A stretch of 64,000 nucleotides of DNA from Candidatus Aminicenantes bacterium (GTDB lineage: Bacteria > Acidobacteriota > Aminicenantia > UBA2199). This document shows, in pieces, positions 1 to 58,389 of this stretch (its first letter is position 1; every line of letters begins with the position of its first letter). The notes beneath the pieces are model-generated. The model saw only the letters and a program-made list of their open reading frames with translations, did not search any database and was not told the DNA's origin. The position numbers and the translations under genes were made by a program. The DNA lies in contig JAPKZK010000038.1 of assembly GCA_026393835.1 (NCBI GenBank), positions 185,988 through 249,987 on the forward strand. The letters run 5' to 3'.

Positions 1-1090
1 ACATGGCTATAGCAAGAAAAGGATTCCGGTAATGCTGTTGGGGGGCATCTTCTTTGATGACTTTTTCTACCGAGCCGGGGATGAAGTCGCCGTAATTGGA
101 GAAAACAAGGCGTCCATTTTCGAATTCGACGGCATTGATGCGGCCGCATTTGGTGTAATCTTGATGGGCAATGCAGTTGTTGAGCGCTTCCCGGATAATA
201 AAGGGCTCGTAGGTGAGTACTTCGTCCGGGAAAAGGGTTCCCTCTTTTAAGTAGCGATATGTCAGGTTCCTGATTTTTGAAAAGACTTTGTCCACGGCGA
301 GTAAAAAGGGAATGTTTACGATCTCATAATCTTTTTCTATGTTATTTTGGTCTTTGAGAATCCAGCGGATTTTGGCGTCCGAGGGGGTAACAAAATGTTC
401 CGATTCTTCGCGCCCCAGGAGAAGAATAGCGGTTCGGGTGATTTTCCCTTTAATTGTAAGTTTGGCTTTATTGAGGAAGGTGAGGTCATCCCATGTATCT
501 GTTTCAAGGGCCAGTTCCGGGAATTTCCCTTTGAAGTTTTCCCTGGCCTTTAGGATTGCTTTTGGGTCAAGGTCTTCAAGTTCCGCATCCGGTATTATCA
601 TGGCGCTCCAGTCTTCCCTGGTTGCCTGGGACCGGATTCTTTCAATTTCTTCCAGGTTTAGCGGCGATAGTTCTTGGCCGTCGCGTCCGTAGTAATGGCC
701 GTCGAAAGCAATGGGGATGCCTTGCGGCGCGGCAGGGACCTGGAACATAACAACGCGACCTTCGGCCAGATTGAGTTCGTAGATTTCCATAAAGGTAATG
801 CGGTTTGTGATTTTATTGGCAATTTCGCTTTTGAGGCTGTCCAGGTCGGCCCGACTGGTTCGGAAGGAGCTGCCAATGATGGTTCGTCCGTTATCTTTTA
901 CGCCGAAAACAAGCCATGCGAAGGGTTGCCCTTTGAGGTTTGCTTCGTTGGACAGCGCGGAAAAATAGCGGCCGATTTTTGTGAAATCATATCCTCGATT
1001 TGCCTCCTTAAACTCAAATACTTCGTTTTCCGCTGGTTGATCACGAAGATCATTTAAGATAGGCAATAATTGTTCTTTTGATAGATTCAT
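1..1090 (-). CDS. AlbA_2 (Schlafen-like) domain protein with RecG-C/HATPase_c_4-type region; runs off window edge
   Basis: Manual translation (absent from the ORF track because no stop lies in the window): MNLSKEQLLPILNDLRDQPAENEVFEFKEA..SALSNEAN..WLVFGVKD..REALNNCIAHQDY..YRNPFLA. Confidence 0.8.
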   Translation of the reverse strand, partial: MNLSKEQLLPILNDLRDQPAENEVFEFKEANRGYDFTKIGRYFSALSNEANLKGQPFAWLVFGVKDNGRTIIGSSFRTSRADLDSLKSEIANKITNRITFMEIYELNLAEGRVVMFQVPAAPQGIPIAFDGHYYGRDGQELSPLNLEEIERIRSQATREDWSAMIIPDAELEDLDPKAILKARENFKGKFPELALETDTWDDLTFLNKAKLTIKGKITRTAILLLGREESEHFVTPSDAKIRWILKDQNNIEKDYEIVNIPFLLAVDKVFSKIRNLTYRYLKEGTLFPDEVLTYEPFIIREALNNCIAHQDYTKCGRINAVEFENGRLVFSNYGDFIPGSVEKVIKEDAPQQHYRNPFLAIAM

Positions 1091-1251
1091 ATTGTTTTCC
1101 TCACATCGATTTTTCCCGCCATTTCCACAAGGAGTTCCACGGTCTCCGCTTCCAATTCCGCAATGTAAGCCTTGATTTTCTCCAGGCCGCGGAGCAGGTT
1201 GCAGATGCTCCGGATAAAGTTTGCCATCTGGCTGTGAGATTGAACGGACAT
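1087..1251 (-). pseudogene. Internally deleted type I RM methyltransferase (HsdM-like) remnant, 54 aa
   Basis: RBS AAGGAG + MSVQSHSQMANFIRSICNLLRG (HsdM N-terminus-like) joined in frame to LEKIKAYIAELEAETVELL (HsdM C-terminus-like); ATGA overlap with the AlbA_2 gene. Confidence 0.6.
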
Positions 1252-1258
1252 TGGGTAG

Positions 1259-1359
1259 TTCTCCTTATCCAGCGTTTAAAAACATCCAATGCGGTATTAT
1301 AAACCATGTCCCCGCGATTTGCAAATAAACAAGTGTTTTAGCCACCAGGCAAATTTTTT
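1259..1359. repeat. ~100-bp direct repeat, copy 1 (copy 2 at 2434-2534); contains a minus-strand sigma70 promoter
   Basis: Near-identical ttatccagcgtttaaaaacatccaatgcggtattataaaccatgtccccgcgatttgcaaataaacaag; TTGCAA-17-TATAAT on the minus strand (1296-1324). Confidence 0.92.
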
Positions 1360-1428
1360 TACCCCTCCAAATGTTCCGGCACATCACCCAACCATTCTAC
1401 GCCGCTGGATTTATAGTGCGGATAGGGG

Positions 1429-2544: not shown

Positions 2545-3855
2545 TCAAGAACAAAGCGGGAAAAGTGAAATCGCGTAAAGCGGGTAATTATAGGTTCTGC
2601 CATCCTTCCGTAAATTCAACAAATTGCTCCGCGATACCACCACGGGATCGTACTTCTCATTGTAAACCTTAAGACTCTTACTTAATAGGTTTAAGCCGGC
2701 TTTCGTTTCAAGCGGATATACCCGGTCATCCACTGAATACACGAAATCTACCTCTGCCTTGCCCTGGCTGCTCCAGTAAAAAAGATTCCCAGGTAGCTTA
2801 CTCCTTAACTGCTGCGCCGCATAATTCTCCACGAAAGCGCCGTAAAAATGTGTAAAAACTGCGTTTCCATTGATAAGCGTCGCCGGCGAAATATTCACCA
2901 TCGCCCCCAACAACCCGATGTCCAATAAATATACTTTAAAAATATTTTCATTGGCATAGCCCATAAGCGGTATTCCCGGCCTGGAAATATTGTAACATTT
3001 ATAAATCAAACCGGCGTCGCATAACCATTGCAATGCTACCTCGTATTCCCTGGCCCTGGCATCCTTCCGGACTACTGAGAATATAAATTTCTTGTTTTCT
3101 TTTGACAGGTGCACCGGGATGGATTGCCAAACCGATGTGATTTTCATGACTTCGGGGCTGTCCGCATGCTTTGTAAAATCAAGTAGATAGGTATCCATAA
3201 TATCTTTCTGGATTTTCCTGGCGGCGTCAAAACTCCTGGTTTTGCAGTAAACCGATACGGCTTCCGGCATTCCCCCGGTAAAATAATAATACTTTAATTG
3301 CTCGATCAATTCGACATGGAAAGGTTCGGGGAACGACTCGAAATCTTTATTCGCACTCTCGATTAATCCCCGTAGTTCCGGTTTCCCTACGGCGTTGAGA
3401 AATTCGAGGAAAGTCGCGGGGTAAAGGTCTAAGAAAGTCACCTGTCCGACAGGAAAAGATCTTTGTCTTCCCAACTTGATACCCAGCAGCGATCCGGCGG
3501 CGGCAATATGGTACTCTTTGGCTCTTTCATTGAAATACTTGAGAGAATTCAACGCATTATTCGATGCCTGGATTTCATCGAAAATAATCAAGGTTGACCC
3601 GGGTAGGACTTTTACGCCGCCCCCATAAATGGATAGACCCGTTATTATTTTCTCCTTATCGAACCGTTGGCTGAAAAGGGCATCAAGGGTTGGGTCATCC
3701 TCGAAATTAAGATAAATATAGTTTTCATATTCTTTTTTTGCGAATTCAAGGAGGATATAGGTTTTTCCAACCTGGCGGGCGCCGCGTAAAATAAGCGGTT
3801 TCCTTAGTTCCGAATGTTTCCATTCGATCAGTTGTTGGTAAATATCTCTTTTCAT
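2545..3855 (-). CDS. AAA_14 ATPase with DUF4143 domain
   Basis: GARQVGKT Walker A, IIFDEIQ Walker B, YLLDIGLL, EVDFV..PLETK; start reassigned to MKRDIY, 7 nt after TTGACT-17-TATATT. Confidence 0.9.
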   Translation of the reverse strand: MKRDIYQQLIEWKHSELRKPLILRGARQVGKTYILLEFAKKEYENYIYLNFEDDPTLDALFSQRFDKEKIITGLSIYGGGVKVLPGSTLIIFDEIQASNNALNSLKYFNERAKEYHIAAAGSLLGIKLGRQRSFPVGQVTFLDLYPATFLEFLNAVGKPELRGLIESANKDFESFPEPFHVELIEQLKYYYFTGGMPEAVSVYCKTRSFDAARKIQKDIMDTYLLDFTKHADSPEVMKITSVWQSIPVHLSKENKKFIFSVVRKDARAREYEVALQWLCDAGLIYKCYNISRPGIPLMGYANENIFKVYLLDIGLLGAMVNISPATLINGNAVFTHFYGAFVENYAAQQLRSKLPGNLFYWSSQGKAEVDFVYSVDDRVYPLETKAGLNLLSKSLKVYNEKYDPVVVSRSNLLNLRKDGRTYNYPLYAISLFPLCS

Positions 3856-4126
3856 GGAGGGTAATATAAGCTGAATGGATTGTAAAGTCAAGTACTCGTT
3901 CCGAAAAGGTGAGAATTTCCACGTTTTTGGAACGAGATTTGTGGGATTCCCCACGTTTTAGGAAGAACCCTGGAAACGCGGCCTGGAATGAAAATAGCCA
4001 CCAAGGCACAAAGGTTCACCAAGGGGTGATTATTTGAGTGTCCCTTAATCCATAAACGGGGAAAAAAAAGAAGGTGGGAAGGTGAGAAGGTAAGAAAAAA
4101 CATGACTGGAGGGGCTTGATTTATCG

Positions 4127-4194
4127 GTAGGGGCTTGATTTATCAAGCCCTTCACCGGCGTTCATCTTTGGGGTTTGATGAAATCAAACCCCTA
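4127..4194. repeat. GTAG-type REP-like inverted pair (BIME-like)
   Basis: gtaggggcttgatttatcaagccc ... gggtttgatgaaatcaaacccctac; related GGGCGAACAC..GTTCGCCCCTAC hairpins near 13344, 22144, 22350, 51837. Confidence 0.7.
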
Positions 4195-4361
4195 CATTGT
4201 CGCAGTATTCATGGAAGAGCAGAGAAAAATCTGTGTTAATCCGTGTAATCTGTGGACGAATGTTTTTTTAATTCGTGCCAATTCGTGTCATTCGTGGGCT
4301 GTTTTTCATCTCTTGTTTTCCCGATCTTTATATTTTATAATGAAGGCCCACGGAGGTTTTT

Positions 4362-7100
4362 ATGGCAGATATTGAAATCATCAAGGAAATGGAGAAGATA
4401 CTAAAGGTGCTGCTATTGCCTCTCAAATCCGGCGATATCAGTAGGAGCGGCAAACTCGGGTACTCCCTGGACGAAATGGGGGCGGTCACCGGGTTAAATT
4501 TGTACTCTCTTGCTATAAAGCCGGTTTTGAAGTATGTTGACCGGCTTCGCCGGGCGACCCGATTAAACCTATGGGGTTGCAAATTGGAACAGGGCGATAT
4601 TGGTTTTCTCCGCGGACGGTGCGATTTAACCTATTTGAATCTGGGCGCGAATCCCGGCATAAAAGATTTTTCCTTCCTCCGTGAGTTGAAGGGATTAACG
4701 TCGGTGAATTTGAGCTTTAATAACTTAACCGATGTCTCCTTCCTCCGTGAGTTGAAGGGGTTAACGTCGGTGTATTTGTGGGATAATAACTTAACCGATG
4801 TCTCCTTCCTCCGTGAGTTGAAGGGATTAACGTCGTTGGGTTTGCGGAATAATCAATTAAAGGATATTTCTTTCGTCGCAGACCTGGACCATCTGACCGA
4901 TCTCTACATCATTGATAACCCGGTTGAAAATCCGCCGCCGGAAATCGTTGACCAGGGCCTGGCCGCCATCCGGGATTACTTCCGCTCATTAAAAGAAAAA
5001 GAATTATGCCGCTTAAACGAAGTAAAAATTCTCCTGGTGGGCAGCGGTGGCGCAGGCAAAACTTCCCTGCTTAAACGCCTCGGCAACCTTGACTTCGATC
5101 TCAATGAAGACAAAACCCACGGCATCGGCATCCATACCATCGATATGGAAATAAACAATCCCGCTGGCGCCGGTTCACAATCCACCCTGATCCACGCCCA
5201 TTTCTGGGATTTCGGCGGCCAGGAAATTATGCACGCTTCCCACCAATTCTTCCTTTCCAAACGCTCCCTGTACATTTTAGTCGTGGACTCCCGCGAAGAA
5301 CAAACCGCGGAATACTGGCTCAAACACATCGAAACTTTCGGCGGCGGCTCCCCGGTGCTGGTGGTGATTAATAAAATCGACCAAAACCCCCACTTCGACC
5401 TGGACCGTAATATCCTCAGACGAAAATACCCCAATATCCTGGACTTTTACCGCATCTCCTGCCAAACCCGCGCCGGCCTGCCCCAACTCCGGGACGCCAT
5501 TAAATCCGCCATCCCCCAAACGGAGTTAATCAAAACCCCGGTGGCCGCCTCATGGATGAAAGTCAAATCCACCCTGGAAAACGTCACCAGGGACAAATGC
5601 TATATTTCCCACAACGAATTCCACGATATCTGCGGCAGCGCCGCCATCCCCACGGATACCACCCGGGAAACCCTGGTCCAATTCTTAAACGAACTGGGGA
5701 TCGTACTCCATTTCAAAGATTTCGAACTGCAAGAATACCACGTACTGAACCCCAGGTGGGTCACCGAAGGCGTTTACCGCATCATCAATTCCCCCTCCCT
5801 GGCGGCGCAACACGGGCTGTTGAAAAAAAACGAGCTTAGCCATATCATCAACGAAGAGAAAACAAAAACCTGCGTGTATATGCAGGAACTGGAAAACCGG
5901 CCCTATACCCCGGGGGAACAAAATTACATCGTGAAGTTAATGCAAAAATTCGAACTGTGCTACGTACTGGATGAGGAGATCATCCTGGTTCCCGCTTTGC
6001 TGGACACCAAAGAACCGCCGCTGCCGATGCCGGAGGAACCGGGCCACAGCCTGGATTTTATATTGACTTATGATTTCCTGCCCAAATCCGTGATATCCCG
6101 GTTGCTGGTCAAATTGCACAAAGACCTCGCACCCGGTCAAAGTTGGCGCACCGGCATGGTTTTGGAAAGCGATCTCTTTCACACCCGCGCGTTGATCCGG
6201 GCCGATGAAGTGGAAAAAACCATCGGCATCCACATCCGCGGCGGCCAGAAACGCGAACACCTCAGCGTGGTCCGAAGCGCCCTGCGGGAAATCAATAAAA
6301 GTTTCCAACAAATGAAAATCGAAGAACTCATTCCGTTACCGTTACCTCTACCCGCCGCTCTCCCGGACGACACCAGGGAGAAACACAAAGGCGCCGGCAA
6401 ATATGCGCGGACCGTATCTTACTCATTTCTTTTGGGTTATGAGCGGGAAGGCATCGGTGAATATTTCGACGGCGAAACCGGGCAGCGGTACCGGGTGGCG
6501 CAATTACTGGATTCCGTCGCACTGCCGGAAGAACGAAAACGGGAAGGTTTCGATATCGATGGCCCTAAAGGACGTTTCCACCGGTCGATGGATGATTTCG
6601 ATAGGCCGGGAACAGGGGCCCCAATAATGAAACCCGCGCCGGTCCCGCGGGAACGCCAGGAAGAAGACGCCGGTAGGTACAGGAGACTCAAGGAACTGGT
6701 TCCACGGATCGCCGCCCTGGAAAAACAAACAGCGGAAGCAAGGAAGATAAAAGACAACCTGGACGCCCGGGCCCGGAAACGTGTGCGCCTGCGTTATGCC
6801 ATCCTATTGGGGATCGATATCCTGCTTATTGCAGTTCTTTGCATTCTTTTATTTAATAAGGAATTGACATGGGGCGATATCGAGCCTTATACCTATATTG
6901 CCGGGCTATTGCTGTTTGCCTGCAACCTGGGTTACCTGATGATCAAAGGAAACAGTTTCAGCCTCACCTCTATATATAATAGAAACCTGGAGATGACGCG
7001 GGAGAATTCTTATCGGGAATATAATTTCGATGCAGCTAAGTTTGACGACCTGGAGAATGAATTGAGACAAGCAAAAGAGGAACAAGCCCGATTGTTGTAA
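4362..7100 (+). CDS. Roco protein: LRR - Roc GTPase - COR - C-terminal two-TM/coiled-coil region
   Basis: 22-aa LRRs, NPPPEIV cap, GSGGAGKTSL, FWDFGGQE, VINKID, LNPRWVTEGVY, WRTG; two hydrophobic helices near the C-terminus. Confidence 0.92.
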   Translation: MADIEIIKEMEKILKVLLLPLKSGDISRSGKLGYSLDEMGAVTGLNLYSLAIKPVLKYVDRLRRATRLNLWGCKLEQGDIGFLRGRCDLTYLNLGANPGIKDFSFLRELKGLTSVNLSFNNLTDVSFLRELKGLTSVYLWDNNLTDVSFLRELKGLTSLGLRNNQLKDISFVADLDHLTDLYIIDNPVENPPPEIVDQGLAAIRDYFRSLKEKELCRLNEVKILLVGSGGAGKTSLLKRLGNLDFDLNEDKTHGIGIHTIDMEINNPAGAGSQSTLIHAHFWDFGGQEIMHASHQFFLSKRSLYILVVDSREEQTAEYWLKHIETFGGGSPVLVVINKIDQNPHFDLDRNILRRKYPNILDFYRISCQTRAGLPQLRDAIKSAIPQTELIKTPVAASWMKVKSTLENVTRDKCYISHNEFHDICGSAAIPTDTTRETLVQFLNELGIVLHFKDFELQEYHVLNPRWVTEGVYRIINSPSLAAQHGLLKKNELSHIINEEKTKTCVYMQELENRPYTPGEQNYIVKLMQKFELCYVLDEEIILVPALLDTKEPPLPMPEEPGHSLDFILTYDFLPKSVISRLLVKLHKDLAPGQSWRTGMVLESDLFHTRALIRADEVEKTIGIHIRGGQKREHLSVVRSALREINKSFQQMKIEELIPLPLPLPAALPDDTREKHKGAGKYARTVSYSFLLGYEREGIGEYFDGETGQRYRVAQLLDSVALPEERKREGFDIDGPKGRFHRSMDDFDRPGTGAPIMKPAPVPRERQEEDAGRYRRLKELVPRIAALEKQTAEARKIKDNLDARARKRVRLRYAILLGIDILLIAVLCILLFNKELTWGDIEPYTYIAGLLLFACNLGYLMIKGNSFSLTSIYNRNLEMTRENSYREYNFDAAKFDDLENELRQAKEEQARLL
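4671..4868 (+). repeat. Three 66-bp tandem LRR-coding repeats
   Basis: tccttcctccgtgagttgaaggg(a/g)ttaacgtcg at 4671, 4737, 4803. Confidence 0.9.
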
Positions 7101-8736: not shown

Positions 8737-11253
8737 ATGAAACAGGTAAAGAAAATCTTTTTTTTAACGCTGTTATTATCTATATTTAATGCGCTCTCGC
8801 TTTCCCTCCCGGTATTCTCCCAGCAGCCGGAGATTATGAACAGCGCAAAGTTAAAAATCGCGCTGGAGAAGCTGCAGGTGCTGGGCAGCGCCCTGTACAT
8901 CGGCGCCCACCCGGATGATGAAAACACGGCGCTGCTGGCATGGCTTTCCCGCGAGAAAAAGGTGCGGGCGGCGTATCTCTCGGTGACGCGGGGCGAGGGT
9001 GGGCAGAACCTGCTGGGCGCGGAAAAAGGCCCCCTGATGGGCGTGCTCCGTACTTACGAACTGCTCCAGGCCCGGCAATTGGACGGCGCGGAACAATTTT
9101 TTACCCGGGCCGTGGATTTCGGTTACTCCAAAACAGCAAAGGAATCCCTGGCTTTCTGGGGAGAAAAAAATATCCTGGAAGACATGGTGTTTGTGATCCG
9201 CAAATTCCAACCGGATGTGCTGTTCAGCCGTTTCCCCGTCGATCCCGCAATGGGCGGCGGCCACGGCCATCATACGGCTTCGGGTATTTTGCTCCTGGAA
9301 GCGTTTAAAGCCGCCGGCGATGCGTCGCGATTCCCTGAACAACTGGAATACGTTTCTACCTGGCAGCCCAAACGGATTCTCTGGAATACCTGGCAACCTT
9401 ATATGAAAGATTTTAAACCGGAAGACCTGGTGAAATTTATTACAGTGGATGCGGGCGTCTATAACCCGCTGTTGGGGCAATCCTACGATGAAATCGCGGC
9501 CCTGAGCCGCAGTATGCATAAAAGCCAGGGTTTCGGCGCCATACCCCGGCGCAATATGCGACTGGAGTACTTTCAAGTGCTGGACGGCGAACCAACGAAG
9601 AATGACCTGTTCGAAGGCGTCGATATTTCCTGGAACCGGCTCCGCGTCGCCGTTCCCGGCTCGGAAAAGGTCCGCCAACTGCTGGAAAAAGCCGATAAGT
9701 CCTTTCAATTCGAGCACCCGCAAAAGATTCTACCGCTTCTTATGGAAGCCCTCTCCCTGCTTAAGGCCCTGCCCCCATCCCACTGGATAATAATAAAAAC
9801 AAGGGAACTGGAAGAAGTAATCCGCTCCTGCGCCGGCCTCTGGTTGGATGCCGCGGCTGAAACCCCGGAAGTAACCCCGGGCCAGGAAATTAAAGTGAAT
9901 GTCATGGCAATCAACCGCTCGGATTTTCCTTTTTCCATTAAAAAAATCATAGTCCCGGGGGAAAATAAAGAGATTGAAGTCAATCAACCGCTGCCCATCA
10001 ACCAGCCGCTGACCCGCGATTTTATGATGAAAATTTCGGAAACGGAATTTACGCATCCTTACTGGCTGAGAGAAAAACCCCAAAAGGGCATCAATATTAC
10101 GGCGAATCATGAGTTCAGGGGATTGGCGGTCGCGCCGTACCCGTTTAATTTACAAGTGGTGCTGGAGGCCGATGGCCGCGAAGTCTCCCTGGAAACCCCG
10201 GTGATCTACCGCCAACGCGACCCGGTAGAGGGAGAAAAAATCCGGGACCTGGTGGTCACTCCCCCGGCAACCGTGAACTTCACGGAAGAGGTGTTCTACT
10301 TCCCCGGCAAAGAGCCGCAAACCATTGCGCTGGTCCTGCGCAGCGGCCCGGCGCCGGCAACCGGCAGTTTAAAACTCATCCTCCCTGCTTCCTGGAAAGT
10401 GGATCCGGCAATGCTTTCGTTTAAGATCGATGAGCCCTTTTCCGAGAAAAAGGTATCTTTCACGGTCACGCCCCCTGCCAAAGATAGTGCCGTGTGCGCG
10501 GCCACGGCCGAAATTACCGTGGGCGACCGCGTTTACGATCGCAGCCGGGTTACCATTCGCTATTCTCACGTGCCGCTGCTGACCCTACACCCCCAGGCGG
10601 AAGCCCGGTTGGCGCCAATGGATTTAAAAAGAACCGGCCAACGCATCGGTTATATTATGGGTTCCGGCGATGATATCCCGGGCTACCTCAACCAGGTGGG
10701 CTACCGCGTAGACTTGCTCTCCGACGAAGATTTGTTTAACCGCGACCTGGCGCAGTATGATGCGATTATTACCGGCGTCCGGGCTTATAATACCCGCGAT
10801 ATCCTGAAATTCGTACAGGGTCGTTTGCTGGAATATGCCGCCAACGGCGGCCGCTTGATCCTTCAATATAACGTGGCCCGCGGTTTGAAAATCGAACCGG
10901 TGGGCCCCTACCCGATTCAATTATCCCAGCAGCGCGTGTCTGAAGAAGACGCCGTCGTTACCCTGTTAGACCCCACACATCCCTTGTTTCATTTTCCCAA
11001 TGAAATCCTACCTACGGATTTTGACGGCTGGGTGCAGGAACGGGGCCTCTATTTTGCGGACAAATGGGATGAGAAGTATACCGCCCTGCTGTCCTGCCGC
11101 GACGAAGGCGAAGAACCGCAAAACGGCGGCCTGCTGTTTACCCGGTACGGAAAAGGCGTGTTTATCTACAGCGGCTATTCCTTCTTCCGCCAGTTACCGG
11201 CCGGCGTCCCGGGCGCATTGAAACTGTTTGTTAATATGATTTCGGTTAAATAG
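8737..11253 (+). CDS. Exported PIG-L/LmbE family deacetylase, long form
   Basis: AHPDDE, TRGEGGQN, DFGYSK, HGHH, HKSQGFG, WVQERGLYF, FFRQLPAGVPGA. Confidence 0.9.
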   Translation: MKQVKKIFFLTLLLSIFNALSLSLPVFSQQPEIMNSAKLKIALEKLQVLGSALYIGAHPDDENTALLAWLSREKKVRAAYLSVTRGEGGQNLLGAEKGPLMGVLRTYELLQARQLDGAEQFFTRAVDFGYSKTAKESLAFWGEKNILEDMVFVIRKFQPDVLFSRFPVDPAMGGGHGHHTASGILLLEAFKAAGDASRFPEQLEYVSTWQPKRILWNTWQPYMKDFKPEDLVKFITVDAGVYNPLLGQSYDEIAALSRSMHKSQGFGAIPRRNMRLEYFQVLDGEPTKNDLFEGVDISWNRLRVAVPGSEKVRQLLEKADKSFQFEHPQKILPLLMEALSLLKALPPSHWIIIKTRELEEVIRSCAGLWLDAAAETPEVTPGQEIKVNVMAINRSDFPFSIKKIIVPGENKEIEVNQPLPINQPLTRDFMMKISETEFTHPYWLREKPQKGINITANHEFRGLAVAPYPFNLQVVLEADGREVSLETPVIYRQRDPVEGEKIRDLVVTPPATVNFTEEVFYFPGKEPQTIALVLRSGPAPATGSLKLILPASWKVDPAMLSFKIDEPFSEKKVSFTVTPPAKDSAVCAATAEITVGDRVYDRSRVTIRYSHVPLLTLHPQAEARLAPMDLKRTGQRIGYIMGSGDDIPGYLNQVGYRVDLLSDEDLFNRDLAQYDAIITGVRAYNTRDILKFVQGRLLEYAANGGRLILQYNVARGLKIEPVGPYPIQLSQQRVSEEDAVVTLLDPTHPLFHFPNEILPTDFDGWVQERGLYFADKWDEKYTALLSCRDEGEEPQNGGLLFTRYGKGVFIYSGYSFFRQLPAGVPGALKLFVNMISVK

Positions 11254-11257
11254 AATT

Positions 11258-11380
<123 letters not shown>

Positions 11381-11419
11381 TTTTCCCTGGACCACCAAAA
11401 ACTTTTGTTTAGGAGGAAA

Positions 11420-11557
11420 ATGATAACTATGGAAGACACAGATAAAGAAGAAGCCCCGCCCATTCTCAAATCCTGGCGAAACCTCTACCTCGTCGTCCTG
11501 GCCCACCTCATCGCCTGGATAACCTTCCTCGCTTTCTTCACACGGATATTCAAATGA
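11420..11557 (+). CDS. Small single-TM protein (45 aa) coupled to the SSS transporter
   Basis: AGGAGG RBS; MITMEDTDKEEAPPILKSWRNLYLVVLAHLIAWITFLAFFTRIFK; ATGA overlap with the next gene. Confidence 0.75.
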   Translation: MITMEDTDKEEAPPILKSWRNLYLVVLAHLIAWITFLAFFTRIFK

Positions 11558-13248: not shown

Positions 13249-13537
13249 CCAAAAATTTTGGGAGTACAGGATAAAAGAAGAGCTGAAAAAAATCAGGGCA
13301 AGAAAAGAAGGGCTACACGAGAAATCTTCTTTTTTATCTTAATAGGGCAGACACGGGGGTCTGCCCCTACAGGGAAATGGCAAAACCCCCGAGGGGAACG
13401 ACAAAACCACCGGGGGGATTGAGAAAGGGAGAGTGTATAAGGTTCCATTTTCATAGGCGGTAAACACTTTCGTGGGCCGCGTGGGAGATATGGCAATATA
13501 TTCGGGTATCCAGGGAAGCGGCAGGGCTTAAGGCATT

Positions 13538-13791
13538 CTAACTGGGCGCCTCATCATTCTCGAAAATATCTTTAATATAGGCTTCAATCCTATTTATGAA
13601 TTTTTCTGCATTTTCAAATTGCTTCTTAGCATCATCATAACACGCAATGTAGAAATCATCATAATTGAATAATAAGACCTGTTGATAGATTGGGAAAATT
13701 TTTTATTTTCCAGGTTTAATTTAGATACCCCAAGGTCATCCTTTGCCTTTTCCAATCTGTATTTTGATAAATCAAGCCGCGTCTCTTCCAT
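13538..13791 (-). pseudogene. HEPN toxin with central deletion and frameshift
   Basis: MEETRLDLSKYRLEKAKDDL..SINRSYYS jumps, with a frame change, to YDDFYIACYDDAKKQFENAEKFINRIEAYI; the middle of the domain is missing. Confidence 0.8.
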
Positions 13792-14140: not shown

Positions 14141-14367
14141 TCAGCGCCTCGCATTAACCGGGAATCTATTTTTTATCTTCATGGTATAGATTATAATATT
14201 AAAATTCTTTTTGTGCAACATTTAACATTTTCACGTTTTCACTTCAATTCTTCAAACTCGAACATGGTCGCCGCGCCGTTCAGGTTGGAGGTAAACACTT
14301 TCGTGGAAAAGGGGATATACAAGAAATCTTCCTTAATAGGGCAGACACTTTTACCCGGAGTTGATCA

Positions 14368-20031: not shown

Positions 20032-20037
20032 TTATAT

Positions 20038-49856: not shown

Positions 49857-51011
49857 ATGTTTGAACGCAGATTGGATTTGAGCTTAAGTTCAGAGGAAAC
49901 CTGTTTCCTATGGGGGCCTCGGCAGACGGGCAAAAGCACCCTGTTGAAAACCAGGTTTCCGAAGGCAATTATTTATGATCTTTTATTATCCGATCAATAC
50001 CGGCGGTTTGTCGCAGACCCATCTATTTTACGGCAGGAGTGCGAAGCGCGTGGGTTGAACCGCGCCAATCAAAAGGACCCCATCGTTATCGATGAAGTTC
50101 AGAAAGTCCCCGAACTGCTGGATGAAATCCACTGGTTGATCGAGAACCGGGGGCTGCGGTTCATTCTTTGTGGGTCCAGTCCCCGCAAAGTAAAAAGAAG
50201 CCACGCCAATTTACTCGGCGGACGGGGCGTCAGGTACGAACTTTTTCCGTTGGTCTACCCGGAGGTTCCCGGTTTCTCTTTGCTCAAAGCATTGAACAGT
50301 GGTTTGTTGCCCAGGCACTACCTGGGGAAATCCCCTGCCAAATTACTGGAAGCCTATTTGGTGAATTATTTGAAAGAGGAAATCGCGGCGGAAGCCGTAA
50401 CCAGGAATATTCCTGCCTTTAACCGGTTTTTCGAGGTGGCGGCCCTGTGCAATGGGGAGATGATTAATTTCAATAATATTGCCGGAGATTGTGGGGTCAG
50501 TGCGCCTACAATCAAAGGGTATTTTCAAATCCTGGAAGATACGCTTATCGGCAGGTTTGTCCCGGCCTTCCGCAAAAGAGCAAAGCGGCGTTTGATACAG
50601 GCCCCCCGGTTTATTTTTTTCGATATGGGAATCGTGGCCCACTTGACGAGGCGTGGAGAAGTGAAAGAAGGTTCAGAGCTTTTCGGAAGGGCTTTCGAGC
50701 ATTTTATCACTCTTGAAGTATTTGCTCATTCTTCGTATTCCGAACTCAATTACCCGGTGGCTTACTGGCGAACGGCTTCTCAATTGGAGGTAGACCTGGT
50801 ACTGGATGACGCGGCGGCAATTGAGATCAAATCCACCGATAGGGCAGCGGATAAGCATCTGCGGGGTTTAAGGGCGTTTAAAGAAGAACATAAATGTAAT
50901 TGTATTCTTGTTTCCCGTGATCCGGCCCCGCGGAAGACCTCCGATGGCATATTGATTCTTCCCTGGCAGGATTTCCTGGAGCGTTTGTGGTCAAACGAGA
51001 TTATCAAATAA
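49857..51011 (+). CDS. AAA_14 ATPase with DUF4143 domain
   Basis: GPRQTGKST, VIDEVQK, FFDMGI, EVDLV..IEIK. Confidence 0.9.
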   Translation: MFERRLDLSLSSEETCFLWGPRQTGKSTLLKTRFPKAIIYDLLLSDQYRRFVADPSILRQECEARGLNRANQKDPIVIDEVQKVPELLDEIHWLIENRGLRFILCGSSPRKVKRSHANLLGGRGVRYELFPLVYPEVPGFSLLKALNSGLLPRHYLGKSPAKLLEAYLVNYLKEEIAAEAVTRNIPAFNRFFEVAALCNGEMINFNNIAGDCGVSAPTIKGYFQILEDTLIGRFVPAFRKRAKRRLIQAPRFIFFDMGIVAHLTRRGEVKEGSELFGRAFEHFITLEVFAHSSYSELNYPVAYWRTASQLEVDLVLDDAAAIEIKSTDRAADKHLRGLRAFKEEHKCNCILVSRDPAPRKTSDGILILPWQDFLERLWSNEIIK

Positions 51012-51894: not shown

Positions 51895-52080
51895 GGCTAT
51901 TTTCATGGTAGTCAAGAATGTCACTCTTCAAATCTCTTCTCTTACTTTCCGTAGGGGATACCGGGCCGCGATCCACTTGCGCATTAATTTAACCGGGAAA
52001 CTGTAAACCATTCCTTTTTCCGTTAGTATCTCCCTGGAAACCAGTTTTCCCAGTGTTTCCATCATTTGCTTGCGGGTAAA
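51895..52080. repeat. ~185-bp direct repeat of the 3' end and downstream flank of the 1160-aa gene (other copy 53477-53661)
   Basis: Minus strand encodes FTRKQMMETLGKLVSREIL..WIAARYPLRKVREEI*; a few substitutions relative to the intact gene. Confidence 0.92.
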
Positions 52081-52233
52081 GGCGGCAGATACGGCGGCCC
52101 AACTTGCTTGACTTTTTTTTGAAACTGCCTATAATCTATATATGAATATAAATGATTTTCCGATTTGTACCGATATTAGCGCAAAACCATGGAATAGTTG
52201 CAGAGCGAGAGGGGTAATCTGACGGTTATTACG

Positions 52234-53508: not shown

Positions 53509-56500
53509 TCAAATCTCTTCTCTTACTTTCCGTAAGGGATACCGGGCCGCGATCCACTTGCGCAGTAAATGGACCGGGAAACTGTAAACCATCCCTTTTT
53601 CCGATAGTATCTCCCGGGAAACCAGTTTTTCCAGTGTCTCCATCATTTGCTTGCGGGTGAAAGAGGAAGAGGCGATCTGGATTTTATTATAAATACCATC
53701 CACGCCCATATGGTCCGCCTGGGTATGGGTGAGTTCCTCGGCCAGGGCGCTTAAGACCAGTCGTTCTATGGTCGTGGCATCGTCCCAGATGTGCTGGGAA
53801 AAATTTTCGGTTCCCCCTGAAATGATGGCATCCACGGCATCATCTACATCGTCGATCAGGGCGTCGTTTCTTTTTTTCTTATCGTTCAAGGCATTCACCA
53901 GGGTTCTGCAGACCAATTGAATGAGATAAGGCTGGGCGCCGGTCATTTTGAGGATTTGTTCTACTGCCAGGCTGTCATAGGTCAGTTGATCTTTTACCGG
54001 TTCTTTGATTAAGCGGATGGCGTCTTGGGGTTTCAAGCGGCTGAGCCGGTAATATACGGCGGTGTTGAAGAATATGGACCAGTAATCGGCGGCCATTTCT
54101 TCTATTTTATGGGTGCCGCAAAAAAGGAATATGAGTTTTTCTTCATGCTGCATTAAGTGGCGGATGTTGCTGAAAATGGTCCTGGAAATCCGTCCGTCTT
54201 CCACGCGCATTTGCAGTTCTTCAAATTCGTCCACCATCAAAACGATAATTCTATTGCCCAGTTCCGGTCCTATCTCTTTGAGGAACTGTTTGAAGCCGCT
54301 GAAATTTTCAACCCCGGTATCGGCATGCAGCGCTAATTTCTCCGTGATGGTAGTGGCGAAGGTGGTATAGAAATCTTTTTCATCATCGATGCCCTGCATA
54401 TCGACATAAACGGGCGAGAGTCGCTTATCGGTAAAACCGTGGGTTTCGATGCGGTAGAGCAGGGAGGTTTTACCGCTCCTGCGCAAGCCGTGGCACACAA
54501 AGGTGTGGTGATCGCCGGAGGCCAGGATATTTTCATCGATAAAATCGTGGGCATCTTCCCTGCCGTAGAAGAGGGGTGTTTCGCCTTTCAATGGTTGGCC
54601 GGCAATGTAAGGATTTTTAATTTTTTTAAATTCGGCGCTCGTTTGTCGTACGTAAACTGGAAATGAAAAGGATGATTGTTTATTGGTACTGACCCTATCG
54701 GTAAAACGGAGGGTTCCCTGGACAATGGTTTCGATGGGTTTGCCGGCCTTGATGGGAAAATAAATTTCTTTTACTTCCCAGGTTTCGATGATATCGATTT
54801 CCTTCTCCATGCCGCCGGGAAAAACAATATCCGGGCTGTCGGTTCGGATTGAAATCGTTACATGTGAAGCCAGTTCCTGCCCCTTGTTGGTTATTTCAAA
54901 ATAGAGCTTGCGTTCCTCATCAGAAGCCGGAATTTCGTTATTTTTCAATTGGATGGTCAGCACGGCGGAACCTTGCAGTATTTTTGTTTCCTTATCTAAA
55001 ATCTCTATACACCGGATAAGCCCTATTACCCAGATATGTCTAAATGGTTCGAAAAAGTCTTGTTTCACCTGCCTCAAGATGGTTTCCATATCCTGTTTTT
55101 GATCGAAAAGTACAGACCGGCGTGTTCCCATACGCTCGATGGCATCGATTTTAAGGAGAGACTCTTTTACTTTATTTAAGCGGGGCATGATCGAATCAAT
55201 GAAGGAGAAAAAATTTATTCCCACGGGGAATTTGTCTATTTCCTGCAGCGTCCCAATCACCATGGAAATGTCTTTCAGATTTTCAGATTTCAATAATTGG
55301 AGGCAGGCTTGCAGTATTTTTATTATTTCTTCGTTAAAGCGATATTCTTTTTCTTCAGACATCAACCGACATACGATTTCTATCCGCTCTTCCAGTGGCT
55401 TCAGTATAAATTCACGTTTTTCTTCTCCCGCGGACTTGAAAATATCTTTTCTTTGCAGCCATGATAAATTGTTGTCTTCCGGCTTCTTGATGGATGAAGA
55501 GCTGAAGAAATTATTTCTCATGGATGCAGTCAATCTCTTATTAAATTCAATGTTGGTTAATGCATAGTAACAGCTTGCCAATGGGTTGGTCGAAAAAATT
55601 TTTTCTATTAATGCGATACCGTTGGATTCCAATATGGATAGGAATAGGTGATGGGCCATTTCCTTATTTTTTGCCAATTCCAGGACCGCTTTTTCCGCTT
55701 GCTTTTGCTGGAAGGTAGAACTATAGAGATGCATTATACGTTTTGCGGCCTCTTTGAGTCCCCATTCTTTGTTACCGGCGAAATGGAGCATTATTTTATC
55801 CAAACCCGGCAATTGGAAGAACAACCGTTCATGTTTGAATAAAATTGAGTTTTCATAAGAAATCGACGCCAATTTTTTGTTTTCAATATTTCCCAGGATT
55901 TGCCTGCGTTGTCTGGCCCACAGGGGAAGGCAAATTAAATAATCCGGGATATGGGAAATAAAGAGAGGTATAACTAAAAACCCGAGGGCCACGATATGAA
56001 AGGGAGTACCGTATTTTATCTTCTCATTCCAATACGGAAGAAGATAAACCATAATGCAAGCGAAGGGTCCCCATAAAAGGCTTGATTTTTGAATTTTTAC
56101 ATACCTTTGACGAAATATAATGCTTTTTTTTACATCATCATTTTTTCCTATCTTTGTTATTTCATCGAAAATGAAAAAATGAAACAGGTAGACGATCAGA
56201 AAATAGACAGGAAATAGGATGCATTCGTAAGATTTCGGCAATACGTACTGAGACTGGGCAATCACTAAAAGCATGAAGGCCGATGCGGCTGTAAAAATAT
56301 GGGGAGCAATTTTGTCATGTGTTTTCTTTTTTCCTTTAAAACTGAGGTAAAAAAAAGCAATGCATATCATAAATAATAGAGTCCAGACCATTTTTCCGTA
56401 GGGATGAAAAATAATCTTAAAAATAGATTTTATTACAGAATCCCGTACTACGTCTGAGGAAACTAATAAGATGGAACCTGCGCCTGCGATTGATAATATG

Positions 56501-56991
56501 ATTGCGCCAACGATTGCCATTGCGACTGCGCCTACGGCGAATAATACTGCGACTGCGCCTACGAATGCACCTATTAATGCTATTGAGCCTGAGTCTACGA
56601 ATGAGACTGGGGCTGCGATTAAGAATACCCCTATGAATACGATTGCGCCTGCTGGGTTTACGAATGAGATTGTGACTGAGAATGTGCCAGGGAATGTGAA
56701 TGTGCGCATGTATGAATGTGCGAATGCGTATGCACCTGCAAATGCGAATGTGAATGCGAATGCGACCAGAAATGCGGATCTAATGCTTTGATAGGGGTCC
56801 TGATAAAAAAAATAATGGGGAATAGCCAGGGCTGTTCCCACCAATAACCCTGAGAAAAAGAACGCCCAGGTGGACGTGTATATATTTTTTCTATCCGCTT
56901 TTACAAAAGCATACACTTTAGATGGCTGGATATACAACTGCCATAAAAAACGGGGCGCCAGTTTTAATGCTTCGATGATGATCTTAATCAT
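53509..56991 (-). CDS. Multi-TM protein with a C-terminal STAND-like AAA ATPase
   Basis: A/F/V/G-rich TM region; NPYIAGQP, FYGRE, GLRRSGKTS, LMVDEFE, TGAQPYLIQ. Confidence 0.85.
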   Translation of the reverse strand: MIKIIIEALKLAPRFLWQLYIQPSKVYAFVKADRKNIYTSTWAFFFSGLLVGTALAIPHYFFYQDPYQSIRSAFLVAFAFTFAFAGAYAFAHSYMRTFTFPGTFSVTISFVNPAGAIVFIGVFLIAAPVSFVDSGSIALIGAFVGAVAVLFAVGAVAMAIVGAIILSIAGAGSILLVSSDVVRDSVIKSIFKIIFHPYGKMVWTLLFMICIAFFYLSFKGKKKTHDKIAPHIFTAASAFMLLVIAQSQYVLPKSYECILFPVYFLIVYLFHFFIFDEITKIGKNDDVKKSIIFRQRYVKIQKSSLLWGPFACIMVYLLPYWNEKIKYGTPFHIVALGFLVIPLFISHIPDYLICLPLWARQRRQILGNIENKKLASISYENSILFKHERLFFQLPGLDKIMLHFAGNKEWGLKEAAKRIMHLYSSTFQQKQAEKAVLELAKNKEMAHHLFLSILESNGIALIEKIFSTNPLASCYYALTNIEFNKRLTASMRNNFFSSSSIKKPEDNNLSWLQRKDIFKSAGEEKREFILKPLEERIEIVCRLMSEEKEYRFNEEIIKILQACLQLLKSENLKDISMVIGTLQEIDKFPVGINFFSFIDSIMPRLNKVKESLLKIDAIERMGTRRSVLFDQKQDMETILRQVKQDFFEPFRHIWVIGLIRCIEILDKETKILQGSAVLTIQLKNNEIPASDEERKLYFEITNKGQELASHVTISIRTDSPDIVFPGGMEKEIDIIETWEVKEIYFPIKAGKPIETIVQGTLRFTDRVSTNKQSSFSFPVYVRQTSAEFKKIKNPYIAGQPLKGETPLFYGREDAHDFIDENILASGDHHTFVCHGLRRSGKTSLLYRIETHGFTDKRLSPVYVDMQGIDDEKDFYTTFATTITEKLALHADTGVENFSGFKQFLKEIGPELGNRIIVLMVDEFEELQMRVEDGRISRTIFSNIRHLMQHEEKLIFLFCGTHKIEEMAADYWSIFFNTAVYYRLSRLKPQDAIRLIKEPVKDQLTYDSLAVEQILKMTGAQPYLIQLVCRTLVNALNDKKKRNDALIDDVDDAVDAIISGGTENFSQHIWDDATTIERLVLSALAEELTHTQADHMGVDGIYNKIQIASSSFTRKQMMETLEKLVSREILSEKGMVYSFPVHLLRKWIAARYPLRKVREEI

Positions 56992-58094
56992 GATTTATCA
57001 CCCTTAACGACCTCTTTTCCTTTTAGTAAAATATCCAATCCATCCTTTATATGTTGAATAATTTTTTTCTCAGATAGCTTCTTTTTCTTTACTTCAAATA
57101 ACTTATCGATCAACTCCGCAAAATATCCTGAAAAAGGGGAATATGTCTTTTCTACCTGAATCGCCAGTCCACGAACTAATAAATCATTCAGGATAAATTC
57201 TTCTTTGGCATTTATGCCTTTTAAATCCTTTAACAGTTTCTGTTCCTCTACCTTTCTATTGTCCCATATTTCCTTATAATGCGGGCGTAATTGTACTTCC
57301 AACCTCTTCCAATCCACCGTGGCATTATTCCTCCCGGCATCCCAGGCAAAACCGCACGCCACCTGGTTGAAATAAGGATAAGCCCCGGCATAATATTGAA
57401 TTTTTTCTTCCGCTTCCTTTGTTAACGCGAACCCGGTCTTTTCAAATCCATATCGTCTTAATTTCACGATGCTTTCATGCTCCATCAGGCCAAGATAAAC
57501 ATGCTCAAAAATATTCCAGAACCCGGAAGATTTAACGGCTTGATGCGTCAACTCTTTAAGCGCCGTCTTTGATACCGAAACAAAGGCCAACCGGTTGTCC
57601 GGGTTATTGGCCAAAGCCCTTAAATTGGAAAAGAATGTATCATCCGCAAATGAATGTTCAGGCAGATGTTCAAACTCATCGATGAAGATGATGGTTTTGA
57701 CCCCGTTCCCCCCTTCTTTTTTTACAAACGCCTTAAAAGATGAATAATTGTCAAAAAGATTTCCTCCCTGCTTTTCCTTTGCCGCGTCACAAAACGCCTG
57801 GTTCAACAATTGAAAAAACCGTTCCTTTGTCTGGCAATCGCCATCGATCCCATCACAATCGATGTAAACGGCGCGGGTGTTTCCTTCGTTTTTGATTTTA
57901 TGAAACACCCGGTTGGCCAGGGACGATTTCCCGATTCGTCTTTCACCCACGATGGATACGCATTGCGGCCTATCGCCGGAAAGCATCTCCGCGATCCTCT
58001 GCATCTCTTTCTCCCGTCCGAAAAACATATCCGACTCGATGGGAATCATTGCTCTTTCCTTGAAAGGATTGGTAACGGTCATTTGTTGGGGCAT
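56988..58094 (-). CDS. STAND-like AAA ATPase
   Basis: NPF, FFGREKE, GERRIGKSS, IFIDEFE, AGAYPYFNQ; ATGA-coupled to the downstream gene; TTGCAA-17-TATAAT upstream (~58142-58170). Confidence 0.85.
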   Translation of the reverse strand: MPQQMTVTNPFKERAMIPIESDMFFGREKEMQRIAEMLSGDRPQCVSIVGERRIGKSSLANRVFHKIKNEGNTRAVYIDCDGIDGDCQTKERFFQLLNQAFCDAAKEKQGGNLFDNYSSFKAFVKKEGGNGVKTIIFIDEFEHLPEHSFADDTFFSNLRALANNPDNRLAFVSVSKTALKELTHQAVKSSGFWNIFEHVYLGLMEHESIVKLRRYGFEKTGFALTKEAEEKIQYYAGAYPYFNQVACGFAWDAGRNNATVDWKRLEVQLRPHYKEIWDNRKVEEQKLLKDLKGINAKEEFILNDLLVRGLAIQVEKTYSPFSGYFAELIDKLFEVKKKKLSEKKIIQHIKDGLDILLKGKEVVKGDKS

Positions 58095-58218
58095 TCCTGG
58101 CTCCTGTTTCTTTATTTTCTTGACTTATAACCTATCTCCCGATTATACAAATTAATTGGTTGATTTGCAAGTGCTAAACGGCCTCCCTTCGGGAGAATTT
58201 AAATTAAACAGGATACCA

Positions 58219-58389
58219 TTAACTTTGGGCCATTTTTTCTTTCATGCGATTTATTTTTTCTGCAGAGATGCCTGTAAGTTTCTCAATTATATTAATTGGT
58301 AAGCCCAGATCAAAGGCGTTTTTTATAATTTCCCTGGTAGTCTCTTTCTTTCCTTCTTTTCTTAATCTATCGGCTAAGGTTAACATCAT
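58219..58389 (-). CDS. Small C-terminal ORF of an Rpn/YhgA-like protein (RpnS-like, 56 aa); nuclease part absent
   Basis: GGAGGTGAT RBS + MMLTLADRLRKEGKKETTREIIKNAFDLGLPINIIEKLTGISAEKI; upstream in-frame remnant LLEETNIEGGD. Confidence 0.7.
   Translation of the reverse strand: MMLTLADRLRKEGKKETTREIIKNAFDLGLPINIIEKLTGISAEKINRMKEKMAQS

Follow-up and report, generated by a model that had tools for sequence, protein, structure and literature searches.

The window analysed here is a stretch of 64,000 nt from the genome of a Candidatus Aminicenantes bacterium (G000), and it contains five gutted genes of toxin-antitoxin and restriction loci. All five had been recognized in an earlier note, lie at or adjoining the positions given there, and were confirmed by alignment to presumed parents, paralogs or syntenic orthologs, with matches far above chance. 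Four are internal-deletion remnants: an hsdM/hsdS mosaic (1087-1251), a HEPN gene (13538-13791), a hicA gene (19978-20031) and an AbiEii-like gene (25098-25229). At the fifth (58219-58422), an Rpn gene has lost its 5' part, which makes it a truncation and not a fusion of N- and C-terminal ends. Comparison with paralogs and orthologs shows three partner genes, MNT (122 aa), HicB (71 aa) and AbiEi_2 (385 aa), to be complete, as had been supposed. Features lie on the minus strand unless stated otherwise.

The MNT nucleotidyltransferase gene (13772-14140), the antitoxin side of its pair, matches PF18765 (E 6.6e-11) and PF01909 (E 1.3e-9) and aligns with its paralogs over 110-131 aa. The neighbouring HEPN remnant consists of a 5' part of 42 codons (13666-13791) and a 3' part in another frame (13538-13665). 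In the same-genus genome G005, the matching site (contig C183) carries a full HEPN gene of 139 aa that covers positions 2-115 of the 117 in PF05168 (E 6e-19), while the window copy retains profile positions 2-35 only, short of a full adjacent HEPN domain. Alignment of the two places the junction between 13666 and 13665, with an AT ambiguity, and shows 163 nt to be missing; what is left differs little from the G005 sequence, with 2 mismatches over the coding remnants. The central deletion was thus correctly recognized, but it is out of frame, and the remnant is not the single hollowed ORF that had been read there: the frame of the 5' part ends at a stop at 13594.

The AbiEi_2-domain gene (25217-26374; PF09952, E 3.2e-16; orthologs at 86-94%) is followed by an AbiEii-like remnant of 43 codons counted from the ancestral ATG (25098-25229), slightly longer than the 39 aa (25098-25217) first assigned to it. 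About 600 nt are missing, with the junction near 25203/25202. An intact AbiEii-like gene of 243 aa occupies the matching site in G001 (contig C3); this intact partner (G001/L010) scores 18.3 bits against PF08843 (E 0.0024; cut-off 22.5). The deletion is common to G000 and G005, and G005 has one extra base, which puts the remnant out of frame there; the reading frame of the mini-ORF is therefore not conserved between the two genomes.

On the plus strand, the hicB antitoxin gene (19766-19981; 71 aa, with paralogs of 63-71 aa) matches PF15919, HicB_lk_antitox, at E 5e-13. Its stop is overlapped by 4 nt by a 17-codon ORF (19978-20031), in which about 10 N-terminal codons are joined to the last 7 near 20004/20005. 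This ORF is absent from the 21 HicA profile matches of the genome and is far shorter than the HicA domain of about 58 positions; its identity as hicA is inferred from its position and from a different hicA remnant in G005 (contig C945), which matches HicA_toxin positions 22-55 of 58 (E 7e-6) and with which its 3' end aligns. The hicA deletions of G000 and G005 differ.

The mosaic ORF of 54 codons (1087-1251) joins codons 1-22 of HsdM (1186-1251), 24 codons of the HsdM C-terminal tail (1114-1185), and the last 8 codons and stop of HsdS (1087-1113), with both junctions in frame. It has no Pfam match, and its termini alone align to HsdM and HsdS of an intact paralogous locus on contig C32 of G000, which carries HsdM_N, N6_Mtase and Methylase_S. 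In an alignment of the mini-ORF halves to intact homologs, the check proposed earlier, the N-terminus of the paralogous HsdM pairs with residues 1-22 (pairwise E 4e-12) and its final 26 residues with residues 21-46 (58%, E 4e-6), and the terminal GKIDVRKTI matches the extreme C-terminus of the paralogous HsdS. A parse with one junction, from the hsdM N-terminus to the hsdS C-terminus, was weaker (44% with gaps). Upstream, a kept region (1261-1324) resembles that of the intact hsdM and contains TTGCAA (1319-1324), a spacer of 17 nt, TATAAT (1296-1301), and AAGGAG (1261-1266) 9 nt before the ATG; it is a putative promoter. The stop of the mosaic overlaps, as ATGA, the start of an intact AlbA_2/Schlafen-domain gene (2-1090; 558 aa on the contig; PF04326, E 1.3e-13). 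On the other side lies an intact YhcG/DUF1016 PD-(D/E)XK gene (1429-2415, by Pfam), whose end is overlapped by an hsdS N-terminal piece of 26 codons (1359-1439; blastx 72% to residues 8-36 of the paralogous HsdS).

The intact paralogous locus also has the order hsdM, YhcG, hsdS, although its own YhcG copy is hollowed to 96 aa (C32:16802-17092, blastx). In the window, by contrast, hsdM and hsdS have shrunk to 54 and 26 codons, while the embedded genes survive. No hsdR-sized ORF was found in about 10 kb downstream (contig 176000-186000, by ORF listing without a Pfam scan). AlbA_2 and YhcG are hitch-hikers of a lost type I restriction-modification locus from which hsdR, hsdM and hsdS are gone, and the mosaic would be the scar from loss of the entire unit. 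The reading of toxins inactivated by deletion beside whole antitoxins describes the general pattern, but it does not extend to this locus, which has no antitoxin logic.

Homology of the Rpn (YhgA-like) piece to its paralogs spans 58222-58422 (75% to the copy on C126, E 4e-27), and only the tail equivalent to RpnS is left. The Transposase_31 (PD-(D/E)XK) domain is absent from the window copy by Pfam; it is present in the C126 paralog (E 1e-30) and in the syntenic gene of G003 (C494; E 1e-22), which encodes at least 268 aa. The ORF at 58219-58389 starts at an internal ATG of the parent gene behind GGAGGTGA, a sequence that sits 5-8 nt ahead of the ATG in 10 of 10 Rpn copies, the window copy included, and may serve as an internal ribosome-binding site and start. 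The Rpn Gly-Gly is encoded GGAGGT in all 10. The 56-aa ORF has no Pfam match, and none to DUF4351 at E 0.01. The truncation would by chance have spared the RpnS coding part and its internal start. Such a piece resembles the RpnL/RpnS genes-within-genes described by Zhong et al. 2023 (PMC10400941), where a small C-terminal protein has its own internal ribosome-binding site and start, and where stand-alone small genes for that part (ypaA, DUF4351) exist. It differs from those free-standing rpnS genes in that it arose by 5' truncation of a gene still full in G003, has no cognate rpn upstream and lacks a DUF4351 match.

Other fragments were found in the window: an ATPase_2 C-terminal piece (14368-14910; profile positions 125-223 of 225) adjoining a full copy (14943-16085); a 5'-truncated DUF4143 gene without its AAA_14 N-domain (19015-19665), compared with full copies at 2545-3954 and 49857-51011; a queA 3' fragment (20038-20439; profile positions 192-322 of 322), with the full queA on another contig; and a 53-codon copy (51931-52089) of the 3' end of a STAND gene, 89% to the 1160-aa gene at 53509-56991.

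The intact HEPN (G005), AbiEii (G001) and Rpn (G003) genes at matching sites in same-genus genomes show that the deletions are real and are separate events of different ages. Lineages differ as well: the AbiEii deletion is common to G000 and G005, hicA was hit independently in the two, and the HEPN deletion is found in G000 only.

Similar decay can be observed across the genome. HicA has 23 loci, with 18 apparently intact, 1 with a stop and 4 deletion remnants; HEPN has 28, with 23 near-full (a TAA interrupts the match in one) and 5 remnants; and PIN has 48 near-full copies, 1 frameshifted pair, 5 firm remnants and 2 ambiguous ones. Among the broken copies of these families, 14 are deletion remnants (7 with both ends) and 2-3 are point lesions, so that the earlier view of deletion rather than point decay is borne out for them; there is no genome-wide disarmament, since 88-89 copies appear intact. 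Antitoxin genes are less often damaged: none of 55 MNT matches lies in a reading frame shorter than 86 aa, and 1 of 25 HicB is likely broken (toxins against antitoxins, pooled, Fisher p 3e-4). About 20 genes hollowed to N- plus C-terminal ends were found genome-wide (11 credible of 13 flagged in a first blastx pass, about 5 more by a tail test and the 4 in the window), including HEPN 3, PIN 3, Rpn-like 5-6, HicA 1 and AbiEii 1; the hollowed genes on C199 and C207 share an identical junction. To be counted in this census, a gene needs a paralog of 100 aa or more, and dispersed repeats overwhelm the N-only, C-only and middle-only classes. For Rpn, where G000 has at least 8 full-length paralogs, the remnants comprise 4 N-only, about 6 C-only and 1-2 N+C.

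It had been proposed that toxin and restriction genes lose their catalytic cores by clean excision in an unusual microhomology-driven or template-switch process, and that the antitoxins orphaned in this way may form a bank that serves anti-addiction or protects against incoming elements. The recurrence of hollowed forms, their concentration in nuclease-type genes, a hollowed Rpn also in G003, and the many full-length "recombination-promoting nuclease" paralogs in a genome in which Ku was not found all speak for such a process, and an anti-addiction role of orphan antitoxins has been proposed in a Klebsiella survey (PMC7192599). Moreover, both ends persist in 3 of the 5 HEPN remnants, which exceeds a simple random-endpoint expectation, although on small numbers, and counts against ordinary erosion. 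The junctions, however, are not generally clean. Half of them, 8 of 16, are in frame; this is more than the expected third, though not significantly so (binomial p 0.13, in a set partly picked by visible ORFs), and that excess itself counts against ordinary erosion. Microhomology is 2 nt at HEPN, 4 nt perfect or 7 of 8 at AbiEii, and 11, 0, 2, 4, 0, 1 and 4 nt at seven other hollowed genes compared with paralogs (approximate lengths, the flanks being 67-100% identical), so that 8 of 9 measured junctions have 0-4 nt, which is nothing unusual. One-ended remnants are as common as two-ended ones in the same families, the intact toxins and the unconserved AbiEii frame are further counterevidence, and the concentration in toxins is no measured enrichment, because only multi-copy families are detectable. 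A special process thus appears unlikely.

Selection for the mini-ORFs, as small proteins or as carriers of coupling and promoters (the mosaic driving AlbA_2, or an orphan RpnS inhibiting paralogous RpnL), is very improbable. The promoter-like element, ribosome-binding site, ATGA overlap and in-frame junctions of the mosaic would fit it, as would the start of the Rpn remnant exactly at the conserved internal signal and the expression of free-standing rpnS genes in E. coli (PMC10400941). Against this, the AlbA_2 ortholog in G003 lacks the mosaic, with about 26 nt of it remaining; the HEPN remnant and the AbiEii remnant of G005 are frameshifted; the Rpn ORF is without a Pfam match; and RpnS action in E. 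coli is specific to its own RpnL in that same account, while the closest full Rpn in G000 is 72-75% identical over the RpnS part.

Collapses or chimeric joins in the metagenome-assembled genome can practically be dismissed, even though the assembly has 212 contigs and 6.58% contamination and dispersed repeats break Logan contigs in the region, because the junction homologies are far under any assembler word size, the AbiEii deletion recurs in a second genome, and independent Logan contigs from run X1 agree with the window at every base across the HEPN junction (2910 nt covering 11356-14265) and the hicA junction (1265 nt covering 18987-20251), at depths of 18.6 and 22.3 that equal those of single-copy neighbours (about 18). 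This junction confirmation, called for earlier, is at the level of assembled contigs rather than raw reads, and minor intact alleles could escape it.

The five loci very probably reflect an ordinary course of decay, in which deletions erode toxin-antitoxin and restriction loci and strike the toxin first, with "ordinary" judged by the literature and not by a matched census. They would have formed separately, as accessory selfish and defence genes decayed in a large genome rich in repeats and in toxin-antitoxin systems. Deletions of about 0.15 to 2 kb may have arisen by RecA-independent illegitimate recombination, whether as alternative end joining or as replication slippage, where chance provides 0-4 nt of homology; many keep the start and stop of one gene because most are shorter than a gene. 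In a toxin-antitoxin pair, the survivable deletions would be those that remove the toxin first or both genes at once, and such selection may explain the observed pattern of toxin remnants adjoining intact antitoxins. The surviving antitoxins would be neutral leftovers that decay later. In bacterial pseudogenes, deletions reportedly dominate indel change. Microhomologies flanking such deletions resemble alternative end joining in one study (PMC6054270); the deletions in these studies are mostly small indels in reductive genomes, while those here are 0.15-2 kb in an 8-Mb genome.

The toxin-first deletional pattern has already been described in Photorhabdus (Belot et al. 2026, PMC13617665), and orphan antitoxins and free-standing rpnS are also known. 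According to the Photorhabdus study, toxin ORFs of 30 unvalidated toxin-antitoxin systems are mostly truncated, with two point-mutation cases only, and toxin-only pseudogenes number 185 against 8 antitoxin-only. Truncation over point mutation, the dominance of toxin-only pseudogenes and two-step decay, toxin then antitoxin, are shared with the chromosomal type II systems there. The present case concerns an uncultured sediment bacterium, offers base-level junctions against sister genomes, and takes in Rpn and a type I restriction-modification locus as well as a type IV-like AbiEi/AbiEii pair. The Klebsiella survey likewise lists antitoxin genes without a working toxin and names degrading pairs as one source (PMC7192599); in the present genome each orphan still has the remains of its toxin beside it, which indicates decay in place.

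Anti-addiction experiments on antitoxins exist. It is conceivable, though quite improbable, that breaks are rejoined without Ku at an elevated rate in the genus, perhaps with the many Rpn nucleases as a source of breaks, and that nuclease-type toxins are preferentially hollowed in this way, while antitoxins and RpnS tails are kept as a standing immunity bank against related incoming toxins.

The HEPN region of the window was aligned with contig C183 of G005, one of the same-genus genomes (G001 to G005) considered beside the genome under study, G000, where the window lies at C172:185988-249987. The G005 sequence aligns on both sides of 13665/13666 and carries 163 extra bases there, where its open reading frame encodes a full HEPN protein of 139 aa (PF05168 positions 2-115 of 117, E 6e-19). 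The window gene (13538-13791, minus strand) lacks 54 codons, from MFHAVRALL to KIRNDC, together with one base, so that its 5' part reads to a stop at 13594 and its 3' part (NYDDFY...EAPS) lies in another frame. Only the bases AT are shared at the junction. Because the retained coding sequence differs from G005 at just 2 positions of this alignment, the deletion is a recent one. The earlier note had proposed a clean internal deletion beside an intact MNT gene; the full gene in G005 confirms the deletion and its setting, whereas the broken frame speaks against a clean event. At G000:C163:1947-4035, on another contig, MNT genes of 123 and 115 aa, both intact, each precede a hollowed HEPN gene (ORFs of 84 and 41 aa), with a low-complexity repeat ORF region between the two pairs.

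The AbiEii-like remnant (25098-25229, minus strand) keeps both ends of a gene that is intact in G001:C3, where AbiEi_2 is followed by a 243-aa gene matching PF08843 weakly (E 0.0024, under the cut-off). Of this gene the window retains the ATG and the next five codons, fused in frame to the final 35 codons (43 aa, with no Pfam match). The homology flanking the junction is AAAC, or 7 of 8 positions for GAA[G/A]AAAC. The junction recurs in G005, where an additional A breaks the frame; the deletion of approximately 600 nt therefore predates the split of G000 and G005, or was exchanged between the two. Loci L009 and L010, from named records, show the same two states and are not counted as independent cases, their ORF sets being those of G005 and G001.

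The hicA remnant (19978-20031, plus strand) is a 17-codon ORF overlapping the hicB stop (TTGA). G005:C945 carries the orthologous hicB (89% DNA identity) followed by a different hicA remnant. Here the deletion has removed the 3' end of hicB and the 5' half of hicA, and what remains includes ISVIVPLHTELKKGTLNSILK (HicA_toxin positions 22-55 of 58, E 7e-6). The tails of the two remnants align (IEDLKDLL against IEELKDLI), in agreement with the hollowed hicA that had been proposed. Since the remnants differ, one hicA was hit by deletion twice independently, in sister lineages. At the DNA level the same-genus genomes yielded no intact hicA, the sole match being the G005 remnant, and the position of the junction is therefore uncertain by a few bases.

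Sequencing runs were compared through their Logan contigs. Run X1, labelled freshwater sediment metagenome, contains 0.95 of the words sampled from 12500-21500, and its contigs span 11356-14265 and 18987-20251 with zero differences and zero gaps. Depth in the HEPN and hicA junction bins (18.6 and 22.3) is the same as in single-copy neighbours; this check was made on contigs rather than raw reads, X1 is possibly the source sample, and rare intact alleles could escape it. Contigs of X2, X3 and X4 cover the stretch partially and are uninformative where coverage is absent, as in bin 13516-14179 for X2 and X4. Thirty ORFs of the window were scanned with Pfam, and the MNT, HicB, AbiEi_2, PIN, ParE and antitoxin genes among them were all full-length. 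Beyond the five loci first proposed, truncated genes turned up in the scan: an ATPase_2 C-terminal piece (14368-14910), a DUF4143 gene that lacks the AAA_14 domain (19015-19665) and a queA piece covering profile positions 192-322 only (20038-20439, minus strand).

The queA piece is a 3' fragment (residues 203-340) at the edge of an accessory region, and a full queA lies on a separate contig (G000:C114:11082-12101). Identity to G005 QueA is 94% for the fragment and 91% for the full copy; the fragment could be a 3' end displaced by an integrating element, or could reflect strain mixing in the assembly. Short dispersed repeats of 30-200 nt, MITE- or REP-like in appearance, occur in dozens of copies in G000 and the same-genus genomes, and in the window at 4107-4306, 11250-11373, 13332-13487, 14236-14304, 16702-16724, 18942-19014, 22177-22353 and 27343-27400. 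Logan contigs break or join at these repeats, with depth up to ~1760 in bin 10860-11523. The 912-aa LRR-Roc-COR (Roco GTPase) protein at 4362-7100 (plus strand) matches PF04678, the mitochondrial calcium uniporter family, at its C-terminus (residues 774-897; 46 bits, cut-off 30.8), and would combine a Roco GTPase with an MCU-like membrane domain in a single fusion.

At the Rpn site (58219-58422, minus strand), a tblastn search with the full 315-aa paralog on C126 matched residues 237-315 only (75%, E 4e-27), and the homology begins 19 nt past the stop of a 708-aa gene. In G003 the syntenic site, upstream of a 90%-identical STAND gene, is occupied by an Rpn gene that carries Transposase_31 and is at least 268 aa long. 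The ORF is thus C-terminal only, as had been described (56 aa, with no Pfam match); the supposed ribosome-binding site consists of parent-gene codons for EGGD. Rpn-like copies of G000, such as those at C126:1637 and on C71, C142 and C166, share the motif [EDN]GG[DE][IM]M with the window (58389-58422). In 10/10 copies Gly-Gly is encoded by GGAGGT, which gives the Shine-Dalgarno-like GGAGGTGA 5-8 nt before a conserved ATG. This conservation fits the internal start from which RpnS is made in E. coli, where separate rpnS genes (ypaA, DUF4351) also exist (PMC10400941). The predicted RpnS start is in this case conserved in a lineage far from E. coli. By tblastn, G000 holds about 8 full Rpn copies, 4 with the N-terminal part only, about 6 with the C-terminal part only and 1-2 keeping both ends; no preference for RpnS retention is apparent among these fragments. 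In G003, locus L045 (C1215, 346-973) is a hollowed Rpn gene that has lost its nuclease core: a frame change leads from 59 N-terminal codons into the final 150. The surrounding region (53509-60567, minus strand) encodes two STAND/ATPase_2-type NTPases (1160 and 368 aa) and the 708-aa protein, which has no Pfam match; it is flanked by Rpn and ParE/antitoxin genes and possibly represents a defence island. The 3' end of the 1160-aa gene recurs as a 53-codon copy at 51931-52089.

The 54-aa product at 1087-1251 (minus strand) has no Pfam match and is a mosaic. Its opening MSVQSHSQMANFIRSICNLLRG aligns with the beginning of an HsdM paralog on C32, which is intact and 727 aa long (pairwise E 4e-12). 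Residues 21-46 correspond to residues 696-721 of this paralog, near its end (58%, E 4e-6), and the terminal GKIDVRKTI to the very C-terminal end of HsdS from C32. The C32 reference proteins carry HsdM_N+N6_Mtase and Methylase_S. The mosaic is read as two junctions, from the hsdM N-terminal part to its C-terminal part and then to the end of hsdS; the second junction has two candidate sites in C32, each bearing GTGACCGG. A single junction from the N-terminus of hsdM to the C-terminus of hsdS is a weaker reading, aligning at 44% with gaps. The upstream TTGCAA-17 nt-TATAAT and AAGGAG are kept, and the stop overlaps the ATG of an AlbA_2 gene. The G003 AlbA_2 ortholog was unusable as a breakpoint reference, RM genes being absent upstream of it. 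A 26-codon N-terminal piece of hsdS remains at 1359-1439, and the ORF listing contains no hsdR-sized ORF within ~10 kb following the mosaic; with hsdM and hsdS reduced to pieces, the whole type I RM unit has been lost, and the genes for YhcG, AlbA_2 and a DUF4143 ATPase survive. The gene is hollowed, as claimed, but toxin/antitoxin logic does not apply to it. The reverse is observed on C32, where an embedded YhcG/DUF1016 gene is cut to a 96-aa ORF (16802-17092) in an otherwise intact hsdM-hsdS locus; aligned to a 343-aa paralog, the remnant covers residues 89-339 in two pieces, between which 162 residues are absent.

Family searches of the G000 assembly (8.19 Mb, 212 contigs, 91.7% complete, 6.58% contamination), counting matches at E <= 1, agree with the proposal that deletion rather than point decay inactivates such genes. 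HicA gave 21 matches and 23 loci in all: 18 intact-looking, 1 with a point lesion (internal TAA) and 4 deletion remnants, namely two short pieces and the window and C127 remnants, both missed by the HicA model. Among 27 HEPN matches, 23 are intact or near-full (one with a TAA inside the match) and one is apparently unrelated; the 5 deletion remnants are three short pieces and the two hollowed copies on C163 adjoining intact MNT genes. PIN gave 56 matches, with 48 intact or near-full, 1 point lesion (a frameshifted pair), 5 firm remnants (three keeping both ends), 2 more ambiguous and one apparently unrelated. None of the 55 MNT matches falls in a frame shorter than 86 aa (a stop inside the match in 4/55), and 1/25 HicB matches looks broken. 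Pooled breakage is commoner among toxins than among antitoxins (Fisher p 3e-4), with detection limits unequal between families.

In a paralog blastx census, 3,349 inter-ORF stretches were compared with 5,693 reference ORFs, each 100 aa or longer. Thirteen hollowed genes with both ends kept emerged from the first pass, and 11 were judged credible; C209:28210 was dropped for a dubious reference ORF, C199 and C207 were counted as a single junction, and the C139 call is complex (121 nt between pieces). In a tail test, 42/525 loci scored at least 35, against 2 for mismatched tails; most were rejected as repeat-derived ORFs with no real loss, and about 5 (C50, C43, C69/C117, C120, C170) plus two window loci were kept by eye. 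N-only (559), C-only (437) and middle-only (577) classes of 1,694 loci were not used as counts, being dominated by dispersed repeats and shared domains. Including the window loci, G000 holds approximately 20 hollowed genes, a lower bound biased to multi-copy families; by Pfam, the parents of those from the census are HEPN, PIN, Transposase_31 (Rpn-like), AAA_14/DUF4143, GAF and unknowns.

The unusual microhomology-driven process suggested by the earlier note was not borne out. Junction overlap is 2 nt for HEPN, 4 nt for AbiEii and 11, 0, 2, 4, 0, 1 and 4 nt for seven other hollowed genes measured against paralogs; the reading frame is preserved at 8/16 junctions (p 0.13 against 1/3). A search for Ku in the 91.7%-complete genome found none, which gives canonical NHEJ no support. 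Overlaps, frames and the absence of Ku fit RecA-independent slippage or alternative end joining, as has been considered for pseudogenes in bacteria (PMC6054270). No deletions removing the antitoxin yet sparing the toxin were seen, which also fits survivorship.

Deletional bias in bacteria is long established. In Photorhabdus, non-functional TA systems are reported mostly with truncated toxin ORFs, with point mutation in two cases only; pseudogenes were 185 toxin-only against 8 antitoxin-only, and a two-step decay was proposed (Belot et al. 2026, PMC13617665). Klebsiella strains carry a median of nine orphan antitoxins, for which degrading pairs and anti-addiction are given as possible explanations (Horesh et al. 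2020, PMC7192599). The window pattern is a well-resolved new case of a process already known, and shows no new mechanism or system. It provides base-level, phylogenetically ordered snapshots of the decay of TA, Rpn and restriction loci in an uncultured bacterium, including two independent deletions of one hicA in sister genomes and an RpnS orphaned by truncation. For annotation, short ORFs adjoining antitoxins should be treated as scars rather than genes, and the window adds a data point to models of toxin-first decay.
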